DNA of 64,000 nucleotides from a virus (UHGV-1351772); one strand, 5' to 3'. Shown: positions 43,193-52,043, counted from the first letter of the stretch. Notes: generated from the letters alone by a model not told the origin. Made by a program: numbers and translations.

Positions 43193-44023
43193 TTATTTCG
43201 CCAGATCTGCTTCTTTTACAAAGATACCGTCGGCGTTCAGATAACCTTTACGGTCTTTGATTTCGTGCCAGGCCAAAGAGAAACAATGGCGAATGTTAAG
43301 ACGATAATAGAGAGCGAGTCGCGCAAGACGATGTAAAGCCCAACCTAACGTAACAGTACCCAGTTCAGTACGTAAGAACGCAGTAGCGAAGATTTCGGTA
43401 GCCTCTAAATACAACTGGTGTGGATATTTGGTATCGTTTAAACGTTCTTCAACGTCAGCGACATCATCTACCTGCAATTGTAAACCGCGTTCGATGACTT
43501 CAGCGGTTGTCATTCCGCCAGTCACTCTGTCCTTATCCAGTTCCAGGATGTTTACCAGAACCACCAACGCATCGCCGATGCCGTCCATGATCAGTTCAGG
43601 TTTGTTTTTGCTGATACCTGTTGCAATCTCACCAAATTCTTCATAGAACTTTGTGATTTGAGTTTCCAGTTTACCGTTGTCGAGAATACCACGTTCTTTA
43701 GACCAACCTTTAACACGTTCTACACAGTTTTCAATAGAGTAGACCGGAACAGATTCTGTATGCATTACCGTGCCGTTGTAAACAGCATCGGTAAGCTTAA
43801 TAGGCGCTACAATTGTTTCGATGTCCAGTTCTTGATTACCGGTGTGACGTTTACCTTCTACACGAATACGGTTGGTACCAGGGTTTACACCAATTGTGTA
43901 AATAGCATCGAACTGTACTGCATTCTCATTCAGAGCGCGCAGTTGTGCGTTAACTTCTTCCAGGTGCTGACCAGGATTAACCACGATGTTGTAAATAGTG
44001 TTGATGTCAAAACGTTCGCCCAT
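43193..44023 (-). CDS. MazG-like all-alpha NTP pyrophosphohydrolase with an N-terminal extension (276 aa)
   Basis: KFYEEFGEIATG (EExxE) and MDGIGDALVVLVNI (DxxD) motifs lie in the C-terminal half. Confidence 0.6.
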   Translation of the reverse strand: MGERFDINTIYNIVVNPGQHLEEVNAQLRALNENAVQFDAIYTIGVNPGTNRIRVEGKRHTGNQELDIETIVAPIKLTDAVYNGTVMHTESVPVYSIENCVERVKGWSKERGILDNGKLETQITKFYEEFGEIATGISKNKPELIMDGIGDALVVLVNILELDKDRVTGGMTTAEVIERGLQLQVDDVADVEERLNDTKYPHQLYLEATEIFATAFLRTELGTVTLGWALHRLARLALYYRLNIRHCFSLAWHEIKDRKGYLNADGIFVKEADLAK

Positions 44024-44954: not shown

Positions 44955-45251
44955 TTATTGAAAATCTCGTTTGGCCTTGCTGATGATTTGAGATATTCGG
45001 CTTGGCGTCACTCCGTGTATTTCGGCCAATTTCTTGTTACTTAGGCCACCCAATTTACCAACAAGAATATTCAATACACGTAAGTCTTTTAACGTTGCCG
45101 AAATCTTTTCTAAGATTTCGATATCAGCTTGATCAAACTTACCTTTGGTCTGCAATGCTATCCCAGCACGCTCGGTAATAGTTTTTAGCTCAGCTAATCG
45201 ACTAATGCCGAAAGAAGTTAACTCCGCGTACGATTTCTCATTAATCATCAT
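44955..45251 (-). CDS. small helix-turn-helix DNA-binding protein (98 aa)
   Basis: C-terminal LSNKKLAEIHGVTPSRISQIISKAK resembles sigma-70 region 4 / LuxR-type HTH. Confidence 0.5.
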   Translation of the reverse strand: MMINEKSYAELTSFGISRLAELKTITERAGIALQTKGKFDQADIEILEKISATLKDLRVLNILVGKLGGLSNKKLAEIHGVTPSRISQIISKAKRDFQ

Positions 45252-45258
45252 GTACCCC

Positions 45259-46293
45259 TTAGACAGCTATGGGAGCTTTAATTGTGTCGTGCGATTGATA
45301 TCCAACCAATTCGAAGTCTTCGAATTTGTAATCGAAGATGGAATCAGGTTTACGTTTGATAACCAGTTTAGGTAGCGGGTAAGGTTCGCGAGTAAGTTGA
45401 AGTTTTGCCTGCTCCAGATGGTTAGAGTAAAGATGAACATCTACGCCACTATAAACCAACTCGTCTGGAACCATATTGAGTTGTTGAGCAATCATGTGAG
45501 TTAACAACGCGTAAGAAGCGACGTTAAACGGTGCGCCAAGTAGGTAATCGTTGCTCCGCATCATGTAAAAACACGAAAGTTTACGACGAGGGATACCTTC
45601 ACGATCTAAGGTTTCATGAAGTCGTTCTTCGTTATCGATATCTTCGTGGTTAATAAGCGGTGCGTTCGCAAACTTTTCCGGTTCGTTTACTTCGTACCAA
45701 TCCAGTCGTTCAAGCAACGTCATTTCTGTTGTGTAAAATTGGAAATAGTTGTGACATGGATTGAGTGCCATATCGTCCAGGTCACCTACATTCCAGGCAC
45801 TAACGATAATACGGCGGGAGTCAGGGTCTTCACGAAGTTGTTGGATAACTTTACTGATCTGGTCATGTGCTTTTTCATAAACCAAATACGTCGTACTATC
45901 TTCCTTCATATTCCCGATATACTTGTAACCCCGCTGCATTAGTTGTTGTGTACGTCTTACGTCATGACACTCCACAACTTTACAGTCGCGCCATTCCCGC
46001 CACTGGTGTCCGTAGACAGGACCTAAATTCCCTTCTTCATTCGCCCAAGCATCCCAGATTTTTACCCCGTTCTCTTGCAGGTACTTCACGTTAGTGTCAC
46101 CGTTTAAGAACCACAATAGTTCATGAATGATACTTTTCAGGTGAACCTTTTTCGTAGTAACTAATGGGAAACCTTCTTTCAGGTCAAAACGTAGTTGACG
46201 ACCAAATACAGAAAGTGTCCCTACACCTGTGCGGTCTTTCTTGACAACACCGTTATCCAGAATGTCTTGCATTAACGCTAAATACTGTTTCAT
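45259..46293 (-). CDS. thyA: thymidylate synthase ThyA with two insertions (344 aa)
   Basis: Collinear with my recollection of E. coli ThyA: MKQYL..DRTG(V/T)[64 protein letters not shown], and C-terminus IKAPIAV. Confidence 0.9.
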
Positions 46294-46610
46294 TTGTTAT
46301 TATTCCCCATTCGTTTCGTTAAAATGTCTAAATTACGTTGCGCTTGCTCAGGACTAAAAATAATGTTTTCCTGGCTATACGTTACATGGAAATGTTTTTT
46401 GTTAACAATCTCAACCTTAAGGCCACGAACTTCGAATTGCCGTTTAGCCTCTTCAACCTTTTTTGGTGAGATTCTAAGAAGACCCGGAAATAGTTCGTCT
46501 GCAGGAACGTAGTATTTGATTTCCTTAGTTTCGGGAATTAATTCGATTCTATCTAAACTGACGCTTATAATCTCGTCAATCTTTTTCTTTATATTGTCGT
46601 TCACAGTCAT
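46290..46610 (-). CDS. hypothetical protein (106 aa)
   Basis: ATGA overlap with thyA. Confidence 0.6.
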
Positions 46611-46918
46611 TAGATTTTGTCCTTTTCGAGTTCAGTTAAAATTTCAAATAGGTCTGCGTTGGACTGCAGTACGATTTCACTGCCTTCTGCTACAACGGTA
46701 ATTGAAGGCTTCTTACCACGTAGCAAGAACTCCCAACGCATTGTTCTTACGTGGCTGTCGAGTAACTGCTTTAATTTGTGGTTAACTTCGACTTCCAATT
46801 TGCCCAGTAACTGAGGTGTAATAGCTTCGCCTGAGTTTTTGTTATAAAGTGTACGCACTAAAGAACGTAAAGAATAACCAATGCACTGCGAAATTGCCCA
46901 ACCCGAATAGTTTTCCAT
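46610..46918 (-). CDS. hypothetical protein (102 aa)
   Basis: AAGGA RBS and a 1-nt overlap with the next gene. Confidence 0.6.
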   Translation of the reverse strand: MENYSGWAISQCIGYSLRSLVRTLYNKNSGEAITPQLLGKLEVEVNHKLKQLLDSHVRTMRWEFLLRGKKPSITVVAEGSEIVLQSNADLFEILTELEKDKI

Positions 46919-46919
46919 G

Positions 46920-47465
46920 TTAATCCTTCAAAATGTCTTTAAGCTTTAGTTTTGTATAGAACGGAGAACTGCTTAGTTCTTCTGTCCAACTTATACGTCC
47001 GTTCTGTAGAACCCGGTCGAAGATTAGGCCGTTCATCTTTACAATTCTAGCCAACTGATAAAAGAGCGTCGTGAGGTGTAGTCGACGCTCCATTTGTGCG
47101 CGTGCGGTACAACTACGTACCGCTTTGATAGCAAGTACCGCTTCCGGCATCAACGTCACCGCGATTGTCTCAGGATGTTCGTTTTTCCATTTCTTAATGG
47201 CTAGTAGTCTGTGTAACGATTTTTCAAGGGGACGTAAATCCCCGTTATTCATCACGTAAACCAAAGCAGCAAGATCCCACAAGGCAATACCTACTGCTTT
47301 AGCAACAAACAGCCCGTCGTGTGTTGTCGTGGATTCACAGACTTTGCCAATACTTCCGTAAACACGTGCAGTCCATGCGTCTGTCTGTTCGCCAGGTTTT
47401 ATACCCGCGTTATCCAGAAAGTGTTTAAACGCATTAACGTGTTCAGTTAACTGTATTTGTTTCAT
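46920..47465 (-). CDS. MazG-like fold protein with degenerate catalytic motifs (181 aa)
   Basis: Aligns by eye with the MazG at 43193..44023. VNAFKHF..AGI matches VERVKGW..RGI. However EEFGE is replaced by GSIGK and DGIGDA by KAVGIA. Confidence 0.4.
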   Translation of the reverse strand: MKQIQLTEHVNAFKHFLDNAGIKPGEQTDAWTARVYGSIGKVCESTTTHDGLFVAKAVGIALWDLAALVYVMNNGDLRPLEKSLHRLLAIKKWKNEHPETIAVTLMPEAVLAIKAVRSCTARAQMERRLHLTTLFYQLARIVKMNGLIFDRVLQNGRISWTEELSSSPFYTKLKLKDILKD

Positions 47466-47479
47466 TTCCGATACCCGAT

Positions 47480-47944
47480 TTAGTCACGAGACTTTATTTT
47501 AAGGTACGCAACCGCAGCTCCCATGATTGCAATACCGGCACCCCAACCTATCTTTTCTATTACACTCATATCGTCCCATCTTTTCTCTACGTTACGTCGT
47601 TTGGCCTCTTCTGCCCGTTCTCTCCACATCGCTTCGCGTTCCAGACAGCTGGGATTTATTTCCTCTTCACAACGACGTTTCCGTTCTTCTTCCCCAATCA
47701 GTTCTTCTAAATAGAGTCTCGTTTCTTCCACAGCTTGTTCATAGACGTCTATGTGATCAGGAAGAACTCTCCTGTGAGCGGCTTTGTTGCGAACGGAAGC
47801 AATCATGTGGAGTTTCCGTTCGTATTTTGGTTCGAGAAGATGAGCTATGCTTTTGGTCTTCCCATGAAGCCCATGACCGGTACCGCCGAGTTTTTCCACA
47901 AGTTCTTCTACAGAAATTGCAAGATCGAGAATATATCCACGCAT
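47480..47944 (-). CDS. HEPN/DUF4145-like protein with a C-terminal membrane anchor (154 aa; start moved to the ATG with a GGAG RBS)
   Basis: The Rx4H motif SVRNKAAHR is encoded at 47774-47791. A charged coiled segment follows. The C-terminal hydrophobic helix is IGWGAGIAIMGAAVAYL. Confidence 0.45.
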   Translation of the reverse strand: MRGYILDLAISVEELVEKLGGTGHGLHGKTKSIAHLLEPKYERKLHMIASVRNKAAHRRVLPDHIDVYEQAVEETRLYLEELIGEEERKRRCEEEINPSCLEREAMWRERAEEAKRRNVEKRWDDMSVIEKIGWGAGIAIMGAAVAYLKIKSRD

Positions 47945-48004
47945 AATTGTTTCTCCGCTTAAACGTAGTCTTGGGAGACATAAGTTTGTTCCCAACTGTA
48001 AAAA

Positions 48005-48373
48005 TCATTTCAACAAAACAAGATGAATTTGGTATTCGTCATCCGCAGGAGAAGAATAATCGCCAGTTACAGGTAACGTTATATCTTCCAGTAGAGCGTG
48101 GAAGGGTAATCCACGAGCAGCCTCAACAATTCGTACAAGCGGAAAACCCGTTCTTTTAATCCAATTGTAATCGACAAACATAACACCGCCAGGATTTTCC
48201 GAACCTTCCCACACACGAATTTCCACAGTCTTTCCCGAAAAGTTGGCCAGAACGGTGCGCAGTCCTAATTGCACATAACGGGGGAAGGGTACTTCAATAA
48301 CTTGTTTTGGTAAAACAAATTCAGGGAATTTAAAACCGAAACCTTTGGGTGTACTAAAAAACTGAGCTTGCAT
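48005..48373 (-). CDS. hypothetical protein (122 aa), possible ASCH/PUA-like fold
   Basis: FSGKTVEIRVW resembles the ASCH GxKxxExR motif. This is a weak call. AAAGGAG RBS. Confidence 0.3.
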   Translation of the reverse strand: MQAQFFSTPKGFGFKFPEFVLPKQVIEVPFPRYVQLGLRTVLANFSGKTVEIRVWEGSENPGGVMFVDYNWIKRTGFPLVRIVEAARGLPFHALLEDITLPVTGDYSSPADDEYQIHLVLLK

Positions 48374-48404
48374 GATAATTCTCCTTTAGGGTAAAAAATG
48401 AAAA

Positions 48405-48432
48405 TACCCTACTCCTAGTCAGGAGTAGGGTA
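48405..48432 (-). terminator. rho-independent terminator after the CYTH gene
   Basis: 12-bp stem TACCCTACTCCT/AGGAGTAGGGTA with loop AGTC, followed on the minus strand by TTTTCATTTTTT. Confidence 0.85.
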
Positions 48433-48436
48433 GATG

Positions 48437-49096
48437 TTACATACGGGTAACTGAATCCCAGTAATCACGAAGATATTCTTGGTCTTCTGGGTCTTTCGGT
48501 GTAGCAGGGATATGACCGTCAAACTCAAACGGAATCACAGACAGAACATCGGCAATCTCGTAACGTTCGACTTCCAGTTCAACTTTCACCCAGTCACCGA
48601 CGCTGGTACTGCTACGCATTTCGGTGAGGAGATCGTTAAAGTCACCCGAAACCTCAATTGCTGGGTGTCCGGTGGTGACAGTGAAAATATCAATATCCCA
48701 ATGCTTAGCACCCTTATCGGCTAATTCACCCGGTTCTAAGTGAATACGTTTCACCAGGTGCGCCAAATAACCGTCCTTGTAAAAAGAGAGTGCAGAACTA
48801 ATCCCGATATCCGAATTCTCTTCAACCTTTCCGTCCAGGAATTTACGCTTAAGCGTTAGCTGTGCTGTACCGTCTTCTTTAATACGGATACGGCGACGCC
48901 CACCTTCTATCGGCATGAGAATGTCCATGAACATCTTAGTGGACTGTGCGTGTAGCCAATCCCATCCCGCTTGCGTAGGTTTAACCCAGACGCAATATTC
49001 CTTTTCCACTTCGCGTTTAATGGATTCGCCCGCAACGCGAATAACCTCTTCTTCCTGCGCTTTTTCCAATTGCGCAAGGGTATCGAATAATCCCAT
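48437..49096 (-). CDS. CYTH (triphosphate tunnel metalloenzyme) domain protein (219 aa)
   Basis: ExExK motif REVEKEY (nt 49001-49012). Further matches are RRRIRIKEDGTAQLTLKRK, VKRIHL..WDIDIF and VKVELEVE, in canonical CYTH order. Confidence 0.6.
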   Translation of the reverse strand: MGLFDTLAQLEKAQEEEVIRVAGESIKREVEKEYCVWVKPTQAGWDWLHAQSTKMFMDILMPIEGGRRRIRIKEDGTAQLTLKRKFLDGKVEENSDIGISSALSFYKDGYLAHLVKRIHLEPGELADKGAKHWDIDIFTVTTGHPAIEVSGDFNDLLTEMRSSTSVGDWVKVELEVERYEIADVLSVIPFEFDGHIPATPKDPEDQEYLRDYWDSVTRM

Positions 49097-49917
49097 TAGA
49101 TTAATCCCATACTTTCACTGACGCTCGTAATGTCGAACGTTGTGTCGTTAAAGTCGATGTTTTCTACAATAGAAACCACCAGATTAGGAAGCCATTCCGA
49201 ATGGGGTGGTGTAATAACCCGGCCGTTCATAACGTAGTAATGCAAGAACGGTAATCCCATCGAATGGCAGTACGATAACACATTACCTAAGCAGCTTCCG
49301 TCAAACTTCAAGAGTCGGAGCTTACGCAATAATGCGTTTTGAAATGCACCGTTCGCGTAATCGCTAAACTCGCCAGGCCGATAATCCGTGCCCCCGTAGA
49401 TACTCGCCTTTAATCGTCGTCCGTGTTGTATACATTCAGCCCCAGTCAGGGTGCGTAATAAACGGATGTCAGGATATTCAGTTTCCAAACGACCCAAAGC
49501 GTTTATTCCGTAGCCTTTGTAGAACAGATAGTCTACGATCCTTAAATAATGATAGTAGCCTTCTAACGTTAAAAACTGACCGTGAATTGTGTCGAATTTC
49601 GCACCGTTAGGTTGCGCGTAGAAGTTACTGATCATTTTCCCTACGGTAGTACGACCGTTAGAGTAAAGGTTAAGATGGTTGATACCATCGGTAAAAGGGA
49701 GTTTTTCGGGTAACGCACAAACGTAGCCTAAACGACGAAGGTATAGGACATAAACAAAGCGCTCATCAGGAGTAAGCACGATGTTTGACGCGTTAACGTA
49801 TCCATTAGGATTATTTCGCCCAGGTTGATAACCCAGCGTTAATGCCAAAGCTTGATTGTCTTCGCCCTGGCTTTTGATCTTCTTTAATACGGAACGCAGT
49901 AATTGTGGTTCGGACAT
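49096..49917 (-). CDS. hypothetical protein (273 aa), possible NADAR (YbiA-like) domain
   Basis: LYSNGRTTVGKMISNFY ... LTLEGYYHYLR parallels YbiA FYSTSDDYGDFSNFA ... PTSEHYFQAQK. GAGG RBS at ATG 49917. There is a 1-nt overlap with the CYTH gene. Confidence 0.3.
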   Translation of the reverse strand: MSEPQLLRSVLKKIKSQGEDNQALALTLGYQPGRNNPNGYVNASNIVLTPDERFVYVLYLRRLGYVCALPEKLPFTDGINHLNLYSNGRTTVGKMISNFYAQPNGAKFDTIHGQFLTLEGYYHYLRIVDYLFYKGYGINALGRLETEYPDIRLLRTLTGAECIQHGRRLKASIYGGTDYRPGEFSDYANGAFQNALLRKLRLLKFDGSCLGNVLSYCHSMGLPFLHYYVMNGRVITPPHSEWLPNLVVSIVENIDFNDTTFDITSVSESMGLI

Positions 49918-49927
49918 AACCGGCCTC

Positions 49928-51202
49928 TTAAATTGCAAAATAGTCTTCCACGATTTTATCGGTAGACTGGTAACTTACACTGCCTGCAGCAATCACGTAA
50001 TTACGTTTCTCGGTGGTTAGTAGCGCCTGAATCGCATTTACGCCCGCATAGGTGTAAAGTTTAAGTTCAGTCATTTCTGGCGTGATGTTTTTCGCTTTGT
50101 CCCATTTTGCATCTAATCCTTTAAATAGCGTTAATAGACGAGTGCCATACGTTTTGAAACTGACACCGGGTTCAACCCGAAGGTTAGCCATAAGGTTCTG
50201 GATAACGGTGGTTGCGATCTGAGTCCCTTGCCCCGGTTGGAGTTTATCCAGATAGTATTCCGTTGAATCCAGATTACCTGTCGCTGCTGCCTGAATCATC
50301 AGCTCGCCGTACAGTACCTCTTTCGCTTGTGCATCAGTAATCGCTTGAAGCATCGGTTCGATTTTAGCCGGTAAACCATAACTGTTCAGTTTAGTAGACA
50401 GGCCATAAATCAGCGCTGAAGAGGTATTAATGTCTAACGTGGAGAAACTGTTGCTGCCTTTAAAGCTGTTAATCAGGTTATCGATGGCTAGGAAGTCGTC
50501 TAAGTCTTTGTAGCTGTCGAAAGTATGCTGTACGTCATCAACGATCGAGGTGATTTGATAACGCATACTGTTGACTTCGGACATAAAGCCGTTGACTTCT
50601 TGACTAACTTCCGAGGGGAGTTTAGCCAGTTGCCCAGCAATGTTCATCGTCCCTTCGAGACGTTTTTTCACTGAGTTAAAGTCGGTGCCGATACCTGATA
50701 AAACAGAGTCGGTTAAGCTGCCGATGCTGTCCCACCCTTTATTTAACAGTTTCCCCATCCCACCCGGACTTAGGTAGTCTAGCGCTTTTAGACCATCTTC
50801 ATCCTTTTTCTTAAAAGGTTCAGAAACGTCACGCTTTTGTGGATCGAGGACAGGAAGTGTTTCTTTGGTATTAGATGCAAACCCGGGAACTTTTTGTCCC
50901 GGAGATACACCGGAAGCCGAACTCCCAGCAGTCTTACTTCCGCCAACACTGGCGGTATCACTACCGCCAAAAAGGTTACCAATTTTGCTGGTCAGTTCGT
51001 TACCACCGCCAATCAGTTTGTTGAATGTTTCACCCGCACGTTCTGACAATCGGTTGACGCTATCGACCGTGCTTTTAATACCACGCTCCGCATTCTCCAC
51101 CGTCGATTGTACGCGGTTTGCGGCGTTCTTTGCCGTATTAACGGAATTATCGATTGCTGACTGACCTTTATTTATCTGACTGGTTATTTGGTCGATTTTC
51201 AT
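49928..51202 (-). CDS. hypothetical protein (424 aa; start moved to the ATG after GGAGACCAGA)
   Basis: The N-terminal part is coiled and Gly/Ser-rich. No motif recognised. Confidence 0.65.
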   Translation of the reverse strand: MKIDQITSQINKGQSAIDNSVNTAKNAANRVQSTVENAERGIKSTVDSVNRLSERAGETFNKLIGGGNELTSKIGNLFGGSDTASVGGSKTAGSSASGVSPGQKVPGFASNTKETLPVLDPQKRDVSEPFKKKDEDGLKALDYLSPGGMGKLLNKGWDSIGSLTDSVLSGIGTDFNSVKKRLEGTMNIAGQLAKLPSEVSQEVNGFMSEVNSMRYQITSIVDDVQHTFDSYKDLDDFLAIDNLINSFKGSNSFSTLDINTSSALIYGLSTKLNSYGLPAKIEPMLQAITDAQAKEVLYGELMIQAAATGNLDSTEYYLDKLQPGQGTQIATTVIQNLMANLRVEPGVSFKTYGTRLLTLFKGLDAKWDKAKNITPEMTELKLYTYAGVNAIQALLTTEKRNYVIAAGSVSYQSTDKIVEDYFAI

Positions 51203-52010
51203 TCTGGTCTCCAATTTGGTATTCGTCAAGGTTTACCGTGACCTGAACTTCGTAGATTTTATTGTCTTTCTGACGCCTTAAGGTCAGAAGGATTTCGAAA
51301 CTACGAACATCAATTGCCTTGAGTACCCTCATAAACCATTTCCAGGAAAACTTCTTTTTTAACCTTAGATTGTGCTGCATGTTGTGCCGCAAATCATTTC
51401 GTTTCGACGGTGTCTGCTCACAGTTAGCAGGATCGTTAACGAAGTTTGTGGAAAGACGGTACCACCAATCCGCATTCATTTTCATGTTTGCGAAGATAGT
51501 CCAAGTTAGCCGAGATAACGGATGCACCATCATCTTTGCGGTCTCACCACAGTTCTGGAAATAACGGTTCAATTGCGCAGTTGCAGACTCTTTAGGTCGT
51601 TCGTCGTTATCTTCGAACAAATCCCGAGCGAGATCTTCACGCACGCGTGTGGTAATTTCAGATACGGTTTTTGTTTTGAAGTGTCCTCGGTAAGTGGTTA
51701 CACAAATCCGCAGTGTCTCCACTCCGGTAATCACCAACCCTTCTGTAAAACCTCGCCAGGTAAGATCGACAGGTAGTGCAGGAATGTTACCTGAACTCAG
51801 CTTCGTGGAGATACGTTGTATTCGATCGTCCATCGTTGCTTTTGAACGTGTTTTAAATTCCGGAGACAGAATATGTTTGGCGACGGCGAGTTTATAATCC
51901 GAAGGCTTCCATCCGATCAATTCTTTATAATTCCAATATAGTGTTTGAAGTGGTCCGCCTGCACGTTCGTCTTCAGCGTCCACGACCACACTTACTTTTT
52001 TGCTATCCAT
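51168..52010 (-). CDS. hypothetical protein (280 aa)
   Basis: AAGGTG RBS. The 3' end overlaps the next gene by 35 nt. Confidence 0.6.
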   Translation of the reverse strand: MDSKKVSVVVDAEDERAGGPLQTLYWNYKELIGWKPSDYKLAVAKHILSPEFKTRSKATMDDRIQRISTKLSSGNIPALPVDLTWRGFTEGLVITGVETLRICVTTYRGHFKTKTVSEITTRVREDLARDLFEDNDERPKESATAQLNRYFQNCGETAKMMVHPLSRLTWTIFANMKMNADWWYRLSTNFVNDPANCEQTPSKRNDLRHNMQHNLRLKKKFSWKWFMRVLKAIDVRSFEILLTLRRQKDNKIYEVQVTVNLDEYQIGDQNENRPNNQSDK

Positions 52011-52043
52011 CACATCACCTTGTTACAAGGGGTTACTGGTTTA

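Follow-up and report, generated by a model that had tools for sequence, protein, structure and literature searches.

We analysed a group of genes read from the minus strand between positions 46,920 and 49,917 of a 64,000-nt stretch of the viral sequence UHGV-1351772 (the window, with which related loci bearing L-numbers were compared), which an earlier note had proposed as a candidate module of counter-defence or RNA repair. All five minus-strand open reading frames (ORFs) were recovered, and we refer to them as A (NADAR-like), B (CYTH-like), C (called as ASCH), D (called as HEPN) and E (MazG-like), F being the ORF that comes next after E. Blastn and tblastn placed the region within the SPN3US (Seoulvirus)/Asesino (Erskinevirus) group of nucleus-forming jumbo phages, with about 58% protein identity for B, and its gene order is collinear with SPN3US genes 216-229. 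In SPN3US order, the block runs from a UvsX-like protein through the beta subunit of the virion RNA polymerase (vRNAP), gp218, to gp219, gp220 and gp221 and then gp222 to gp225; B, the equivalent of gp225, is followed by the C and D slots (gp226/gp227), by E and F (together gp228) and by thymidylate synthase. The locus comprises the following features.

49096-49917, minus strand: gene A, 273 amino acids (aa), ortholog of SPN3US gp224 and Asesino gp246
48437-49096, minus strand: gene B, 219 aa, predicted CYTH/triphosphate tunnel metalloenzyme (TTM) fold, ortholog of SPN3US gp225
49025-49096, minus strand: predicted propeptide of B, its 24 N-terminal residues, ending at V-A-G-E24/S25 (the slash marks the cleavage point)
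48440-49024, minus strand: predicted mature B, residues 25-219, 22.4 kDa
48405-48432, minus strand: terminator-like hairpin with a 12-bp GC-rich stem, a 4-nt loop and a T-run
48005-48373, minus strand: gene C, 122 aa, clade-specific and fast-diverging, in a variable slot
47480-47944, minus strand: gene D, 154 aa, with an N-terminal domain, a charged linker and a C-terminal hydrophobic helix
46920-47465, minus strand: gene E, 181 aa, a putatively inactive MazG-like paralog equivalent to the N-terminal half of SPN3US gp228
46610-46918, minus strand: gene F, 102 aa, which in relatives is the C-terminal domain of the protein of E

The AlphaFold2 (AF2) model of B (predicted local distance difference test, pLDDT, 87.6) has the eight-stranded antiparallel beta-barrel of the tunnel fold. 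A Foldseek search of this model against the viral models of BFVD retrieved the CYTH proteins of the Ralstonia jumbo phages RP12, RSL2 and RSF1. Thiamine triphosphatase, Cet1 and the VTC proteins stand lower among the structural matches. B gave no match in Pfam, NCBIfam, PADLOC or PDB profiles, even at E≤1-10, and PHROGs places it in phrog_7768, a family of unknown function; homologs of B are already named "CYTH domain-containing protein" in one UniRef and one JGI entry. Residues invariant among the homologs of B include E31, E33, D58, R68, R69, R71, K83, E92, E93, H113, R117, D134, D136, K171, E173 and E175, so that invariant charged positions, mostly at an i, i+2 spacing, are found on all eight predicted strands. 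Because invariant charged residues on every strand are the pattern of a TTM active site, the model and the alignment favour a live enzyme. In strand 1, E31 and E33 are invariant and E29 nearly so, and the lysine position of the ExExK motif is held by a nearly invariant Cys35. Bacterial CYTH/TTM proteins (BH2851, 2gfg; PH1012, 2dc4; E. coli YgiF, 5a61; class IV adenylate cyclase, 2fjt) share only 13-17% identity with B, which differs from them in this cysteine, in its propeptide, in a variable helical insert at residues ~140-165 and, judging by its SPN3US ortholog, in being packaged in the virion. At the level of the modelled fold, B is a very divergent CYTH/TTM-fold protein.

B and SPN3US gp225 are syntenic, 219 aa each and 58% identical over their full length. 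SPN3US gp225 is a low-abundance head protein detected in purified virions and in tailless heads, with a mass of 25.1 kDa as predicted and 22.3 kDa when mature, and the prohead protease gp245 cleaves it at ARE-24 (PMC10052503). The motif of this protease is A-x-E, with a preference for V at P4 and S at P1' (PMC10052503). Window B carries V-A-G-E24/S25 at the mapped cleavage position, and in 25 B homologs E24 and S25 are invariant and A22 is found in at least 90%. Residues 1-24 form a low-pLDDT helix detached from the barrel in the AF2 model, and the calculated masses of B are 25.1 kDa for the full protein and 22.4 kDa for the mature form. B thus resembles gp225 in its A-x-E-24/S site, length, genomic position and mature mass (22.4 against 22.3 kDa); what differs is the description, the published accounts assigning no function to gp225 beyond listing it as a low-abundance head protein and the TTM/CYTH fold being assigned here. 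Location in the head and cleavage after residue 24 have been demonstrated for the SPN3US ortholog and are predicted from sequence for window B. Since gp225 is a protease-processed head protein, a cytoplasmic complex of A with B becomes less likely and the action of B is shifted towards injection. SPN3US heads hold more than 40 MDa of ejection proteins, vRNAP included, that leave with the DNA (PMC7411985). A gene 225 amber mutation is the third most frequent of 50 SPN3US conditional-lethal candidates (6.4% of reads), and a gene 222 amber is also present in this pool (3.9% of reads); for neither gene was the amber confirmed to stand alone, or essentiality established (PMC5105663).

Gene A, whose ATG at 49917 has a GAGG Shine-Dalgarno sequence on its 5' side, encodes a NADAR domain at residues ~70-255 (49153-49710) behind a basic N-terminal extension of ~70 residues (residues 1-~70, 49711-49917; isoelectric point, pI, 9.3). 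Its AF2 model (pLDDT 92.8) has a YbiA-like NADAR fold. A profile of the A family run against 1.84 billion proteins found 1,096 representatives (E≤0.001), mostly of 150-190 aa. With hhalign, residues 70-255 of A aligned with a profile of 42 relatives plus T4 gp30.3 at E=5.6e-42, and A alone aligned with T4 gp30.3 at E=1.2e-3 with the SNF and LEG motifs in register. In this alignment E119 and R126 of A fall on E36 and K43 of T4 AdfN; E119 is invariant among A homologs and position 126 is R or K. E36 and K43 are the residues that were mutated in AdfN, and their counterparts in the Phytophthora enzyme are E43 and K50 (PMC11825919, PMC11543638). The third catalytic residue, on the last strand, is Glu in the YbiA branch, Asp in DarG1 and in the BC4488 branch and His in phage NADARs (PMC11543638, PMC11125620). 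H226 of A, in an HYY motif, is invariant in 31 homologs, with an equivalent His nearly invariant across the wider family; it fits the phage-NADAR His hallmark, its equivalence to E125 of PnNADAR coming from alignment rather than from a superposed structure.

Like T4 gp30.3/AdfN (PF08010), then, A has the NADAR fold, the SNF and LEG motifs, the catalytic Glu, a basic residue at +7 and a His on the last strand, but it is longer (273 against 152 aa), owing to its N-terminal extension and an insertion, and has Arg in place of Lys at +7. Model and motifs agree that, at fold level, A is a very divergent His-type phage NADAR of the same branch as T4 gp30.3/AdfN. Sequence profiles fail to recognise it: A had no match in Pfam, NCBIfam, PADLOC or PDB profiles, neither PF08719 (NADAR) nor PF08010 (Phage_30_3) matched A or 30 of its homologs significantly, and among 42 wider relatives PF08010 matches two and PF08719 one, weakly. 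PHROGs places A in phrog_652, again of unknown function. By tblastn, the NADAR domain of A occurs in 347 phage records, every one of them annotated as a hypothetical protein; the long form of A (at least 80% query coverage) occurs in 54 phage records and B, with a similar distribution, in 62. The branch to which A belongs, made up of about 1,100 representatives and these 347 phage records and recognised by neither of the two Pfam models, includes Salmonella phages of Ackermannviridae size (~157 kb) and phages of Vibrio, Pseudomonas and Yersinia. In several records of Salmonella SPFM phages (P0045-P0049, P0076, P0080, P0083), the A and B orthologs are annotated as partial fragments of 155-262 aa, which suggests frameshifts or assembly errors in those records.

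Ten multidomain relatives of A show fusions to DUF4326, SLOG, Macro, PD-(D/E)XK and metallophosphoesterase domains, and several of these partners are those reported for jumbo-phage NADAR domains (PMC7824862). We also looked for a CYTH fusion among these ten relatives and saw none. A carries no A-x-E protease site, and neither gp224 nor gp222 is among the SPN3US virion mass-spectrometry rows listed. In its basic character, the extension of A recalls the one in DarT1-associated NADARs for which DNA binding has been proposed (PMC11543638). A role for A in counter-defence is plausible by analogy, because T4 gp30.3/AdfN, of the same branch, reverses guanine ADP-ribosylation by DarT1 (PMC11825919, PMC11125620). 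Nucleus-forming jumbo phages also have an ADP-ribose-removing counter-defence in AdfM, a chimallivirus DarG2-like macrodomain protein (PhiKZ gp104, Asesino gp217), and the Asesino clade carries AdfM together with homologs of A and B (PMC13309987). AdfM differs from A in having the macrodomain fold and in its adduct, thymine-ADP-ribose (thymine-ADPr) made by DarT2; if acting on DNA, A would be its guanine-specific counterpart.

The conservation of the locus was followed in 35 loci from phage genomes, IMG/VR and metagenomes, reaching down to 38% identity in B. A lies immediately upstream of B in 35/35 loci, and homologs of gp222 and gp223 precede the A-B pair wherever the contig reaches that far. 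The conserved block is formed by the gp222-like gene, the gp223-like gene, A and B rather than by the five genes flagged earlier. Its two other members are the following.

49928-51229, minus strand: gp223-like gene, 433 aa, ortholog of SPN3US gp223, matching phrog_5028 at E=4e-124
51168-52013, minus strand: gp222-like gene, 281 aa, ortholog of SPN3US gp222, matching phrog_4910

The gp223-like gene probably starts at the ATG at 51202. Its protein is 64% identical to SPN3US gp223 and is syntenic in all loci; SPN3US gp223 is scored "Tail" in the listed rows of the virion mass-spectrometry data. The gp222-like family had no match in Pfam or PDB profiles; against PDB sequences, HMMER profiles of the A, B, C, D and gp222-like families drew matches no better than chance. 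In the CR5/Derbicus group and the most distant loci, thymidylate synthase and MazG are missing from this neighbourhood.

Downstream, the A-B pair is bounded by the terminator that had been suggested between B and C, which proved to be a 12-bp hairpin with a T-run (48432-48405) directly 3' of the B stop, followed by AAGGAG and the start codon of C. This intrinsic-terminator-like structure closes the A-B transcription unit and separates it from C, D and E. Within the unit, the stop codon of A and the start codon of B have a single base in common (...ATCTAATGGGA..., TAATG), as had been noted before, and the same stop-start overlap is found in SPN3US and Asesino. Overlaps of 1 or 4 nt occur at 10/53 same-strand junctions of the window, however, and 27/53 are spaced by 15 nt or less. 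Because short overlaps are ordinary in this genome, the 1-nt overlap is uninformative on functional coupling, and we rejected it as a sign of a link between A and B.

Close relatives of the window are mosaics across this region. Compared with the window, L031 and L032 are 96% identical in A and E, 85% in B, 58% in C and 85% in D, and L005 has the reverse pattern, with 82% in A and 96% in B. Nucleotide identity among relatives falls to 56-60% at 48000-48200 and 48600-48800. We observed a recombination breakpoint near the A/B junction, and the hot spot of divergence covers the C-terminal half of B and all of C. Tight co-evolution of A with B is disfavoured, since recombination breakpoints fall between the two genes in close relatives.

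The genes beyond the terminator behave differently from A and B. No match to C was found in Pfam, PHROGs, NCBIfam, PADLOC or PDB profiles, so that the call of ASCH gains nothing from these libraries, and homologs of C were found only in contigs of the window lineage, at 58-97% identity where flanking genes stand at ~96%. D had been called a membrane-anchored HEPN protein, a claim of which the motif R52-N-K-A-A-H57 (Rx4-6H; 47774-47791) and the C-terminal hydrophobic helix (at about 47495-47551) hold; the motif is present in 5/5 sequences, which are near-identical ones. The family assignment itself did not reach significance: D matches Pfam DUF4145, a HEPN family (PMC3710099), across the motif but below threshold (E=0.086, 13.4 bits against a cut-off of 23.1), with no significant family match in PHROGs, NCBIfam or PADLOC and none in the PDB profile search. 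D may therefore, from its motif and helix, be a membrane-anchored HEPN protein or RNase. Its C-terminal transmembrane helix is conserved among close relatives. In L003 and L006, D differs by an insertion or deletion of 31-36 aa in the charged linker and its N-terminal domain is nearly invariant; an arms race in the catalytic domain was accordingly rejected as the cause of the low identity.

For neither C nor D could a homolog be detected beyond the closely related contigs that make up the lineage of the window. In phages of the SPN3US, Wellington and CR5/Derbicus types, their slots are occupied by proteins of comparable size, such as the 133-161 aa protein in the D slot of SPN3US-type phages, that are unrelated to C and D. 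We considered whether these were diverged orthologs and rejected the idea, as neither jackhmmer nor hhalign revealed remote homology; it follows that the slots hold different genes across clades. We propose that C and D are clade-specific accessory genes, in a manner typical of host-interaction genes.

E was rightly described as a degenerate MazG-like protein. Jackhmmer started from E reaches the MazG of the window (43193-44023) at E=7e-23, and the two share phrog_10269, E covering positions 30-163 of that family and F positions 201-298. The acidic motifs of MazG (EExxE and DxxD; YEEFGE and DGIGD) are replaced in E and throughout the E family. Since these are the metal-binding residues, E would be an inactive MazG paralog rather than a MazG enzyme. 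In relatives (L008-L011, L014 and SPN3US-type phages), E and F are fused in one protein of 290-342 aa, so that the extra C-terminal domain of the E protein is split off as F in the window, where F starts 1 nt past the stop of E. The split is common to all members of the window clade and is thus not a sequencing error in a single record. E and F adjoin the thymidylate synthase/MazG neighbourhood. Between F and thymidylate synthase lies a further ORF, G (46290-46610, 106 aa), which L004, L006 and L026 carry and L003, L005, L031 and L032 lack. A 98-aa ORF downstream of thymidylate synthase (44955-45251) is equally sporadic among near-identical relatives; neither of these two ORFs had a family match.

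On balance, we think it probable that the locus holds three separate things rather than one system, namely A and B in a late-type block, a variable C-D slot, and a dead, split MazG formed by E and F. A single five-gene system is not supported, because C and D are confined to the lineage, the terminator splits A-B from C-D-E and E is a catalytically dead MazG paralog; the proposed functional cluster failed on co-conservation. According to our preferred reading, A and B would stand at the end of a structural or late-type block (gp222-like, the gp223-like tail protein, A and B) closed by the terminator. A would be made after infection as a non-virion N-glycosidic ADP-ribosyl hydrolase, most likely stripping ADP-ribose from guanine of phage nucleic acid modified by host DarT1-like toxins or, alternatively, from another N-linked acceptor. 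It would complement the macrodomain protein AdfM, with which phages of this group counter DarTG2 (PMC13309987). B would be made with its 24-residue propeptide, built into the prohead, trimmed after A-G-E24 and borne in the head in low copy, to be ejected, probably, with the DNA and vRNAP like other internal head proteins of SPN3US-type phages. Once ejected, it would act within minutes of the start of infection by hydrolysing a substrate that bears a triphosphate, our first guess being 5'-triphosphate RNA ends or free nucleotides resembling (deoxy)nucleoside triphosphates. C and D would be slot contents that vary by phage clade and diverge fast within a clade, and E with F a non-catalytic MazG derivative belonging to the adjoining nucleotide-metabolism neighbourhood.

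Several points weigh against this reading. YbiA-type NADARs act on riboflavin intermediates. A and B are recognised by no sequence-profile library, and it is for this reason that their assignments rest on predicted structures and motifs; the earlier NADAR and CYTH calls stand at the level of predicted folds and are rejected by every such library. B lacks the canonical lysine of ExExK (E31-K-E33-Y-C35), and its substrate cannot be deduced from its fold. The virion data stem from SPN3US, whose gp225 is 58% identical to B, and not from the window phage. The A-B adjacency lies inside a collinear block of at least nine genes and therefore neither proves nor excludes a functional link. Lastly, T4 AdfN could not neutralise DarT1 outside T-even infection (PMC11125620, PMC11825919), which indicates that NADAR specificity does not transfer between contexts.

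It is also conceivable, though unlikely, that A acts on small molecules, such as soluble ADP-ribose-derived immune signals or toxic metabolites, which have been suggested as targets of jumbo-phage NADARs, or the substrates of YbiA-type N-glycosidases. Every NADAR tested, including T4 gp30.3, hydrolyses guanine-ADPr on DNA (PMC11125620, PMC11825919), and the basic extension of A (pI 9.3), with its likeness to the proposed DNA-binding extension of DarT1-associated NADARs (PMC11543638), points away from such substrates as well.

A and B could instead form one two-enzyme pathway on the same class of substrate, their coupling ensuring stoichiometric co-production; ADP-ribosylated or NAD-capped 5' RNA ends, or the destruction of a NAD-derived nucleotide immune signal, would be examples. 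In favour of such a pathway are the order of the two genes, A directly preceding B in each of the 35 loci even where B is only 38% identical, the stop/start overlap found alike in the window, SPN3US and Asesino, and the comparable distribution of long-form A (54 phage records) and B (62). The adjacency, however, lies within a long collinear block, short overlaps are the rule in this genome, and the pair is cut by the breakpoints between its genes, L031 being 96% identical in A but 85% in B and L005 82% in A but 96% in B. Nor was any CYTH fusion seen among the ten multidomain relatives of A. Moreover, gp225 is in the head and gp224 is not among the virion rows listed, which would keep the proteins apart in space and time, and the N-glycosidic chemistry of a NADAR and the phosphoanhydride chemistry of a TTM have no obvious substrate or product in common. 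We regard a joint pathway as quite unlikely.

We hold similarly little expectation that B is specifically a virion-delivered RNA 5'-triphosphatase acting on early vRNAP transcripts, in the manner of the core-packaged TTM capping module of poxviruses and mimivirus. That gp225 and the vRNAP subunits are both head proteins, with comparable spectral counts in the rows listed (~114 for gp225 and ~60 for gp218), and that the gene 225 amber ranks third in the SPN3US conditional-lethal pool (PMC5105663, Table 1) would suit such an enzyme, but no single mutant has confirmed that gene 225 is essential. B differs from the TTM modules of vaccinia D1 and mimivirus in being a stand-alone protein of 22 kDa, no guanylyltransferase or cap methyltransferase partner having been found in the conserved block. 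A homolog of gp225 is lacking in PhiKZ and 201phi2-1, although their transcription strategy is the same (PMC10052503), so that vRNAP transcription has no general need of a B-type enzyme.

A more elaborate proposal, to which we give very little credence, is a two-stage counter-defence in which injected B acts before phage gene expression, either remodelling early transcripts at their 5'-ppp ends or eliminating a host immune nucleotide that bears a triphosphate, and newly made NADAR then clears ADP-ribose adducts. If true, it would represent the first RNA 5'-end or nucleotide-triphosphate enzyme delivered in a phage virion and co-ejected with a multisubunit RNA polymerase, and a parallel in a nucleus-forming phage to the capping triphosphatases that poxviruses and giant viruses package in their cores. 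It is highly improbable that B has only a structural or scaffolding role in the head and retains the TTM barrel without catalysis, as Mediator Med18/Med20 do, given that 17 invariant charged residues over all eight strands, in sequences only 42-58% identical, would be expected of a preserved active-site tunnel and not of a scaffold.

NADAR and CYTH domains are known to be scattered through jumbo phages (PMC7824862, PMC9503650), and A and B each add, as far as their models tell, a new and highly divergent protein to an established superfamily. A stand-alone TTM delivered by the virion would be a new variation on a known theme in phages; we found no evidence of a new kind of system. SPN3US gp225, listed with unknown function in the proteomics papers, gains a fold and an enzymatic hypothesis, and if B is an active, ejected triphosphatase, SPN3US-type phages deliver a second catalytic activity beside vRNAP at the earliest stage of infection, which is also the one least well understood. 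The NADAR of Seoulvirus and Erskinevirus has been missed by Pfam, NCBIfam and PHROG annotation and could be the guanine-ADPr counterpart of chimallivirus AdfM. In the literature searched, we found no description of gp225 as a TTM, of gp224 as a His-type NADAR or of the constant gp224-gp225 pairing, and the Asesino cell-biology paper and the nucleus interaction-network paper make no mention of A, B or their Asesino orthologs. A false lead is also removed, as the five genes of the "RNA-processing module" are not conserved together.

A megablast search of the window against the INPHARED phage collection gave no match, so that the window phage is absent from that collection. Near-identical contigs of 220-228 kb are present in IMG/VR, in metagenomes, in ENA/NCBI and in many Salmonella Enteritidis assemblies, and one of them (L026, CYGL01000001.1) is 100% identical to the window over B. 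The window and these contigs (L003-L006, L026-L032) look like an undescribed lineage of SPN3US-related jumbo phages that is often co-assembled with Salmonella isolates, which possibly hold it in a carrier state. The 90%-identity cluster of B has 373 member sequences.

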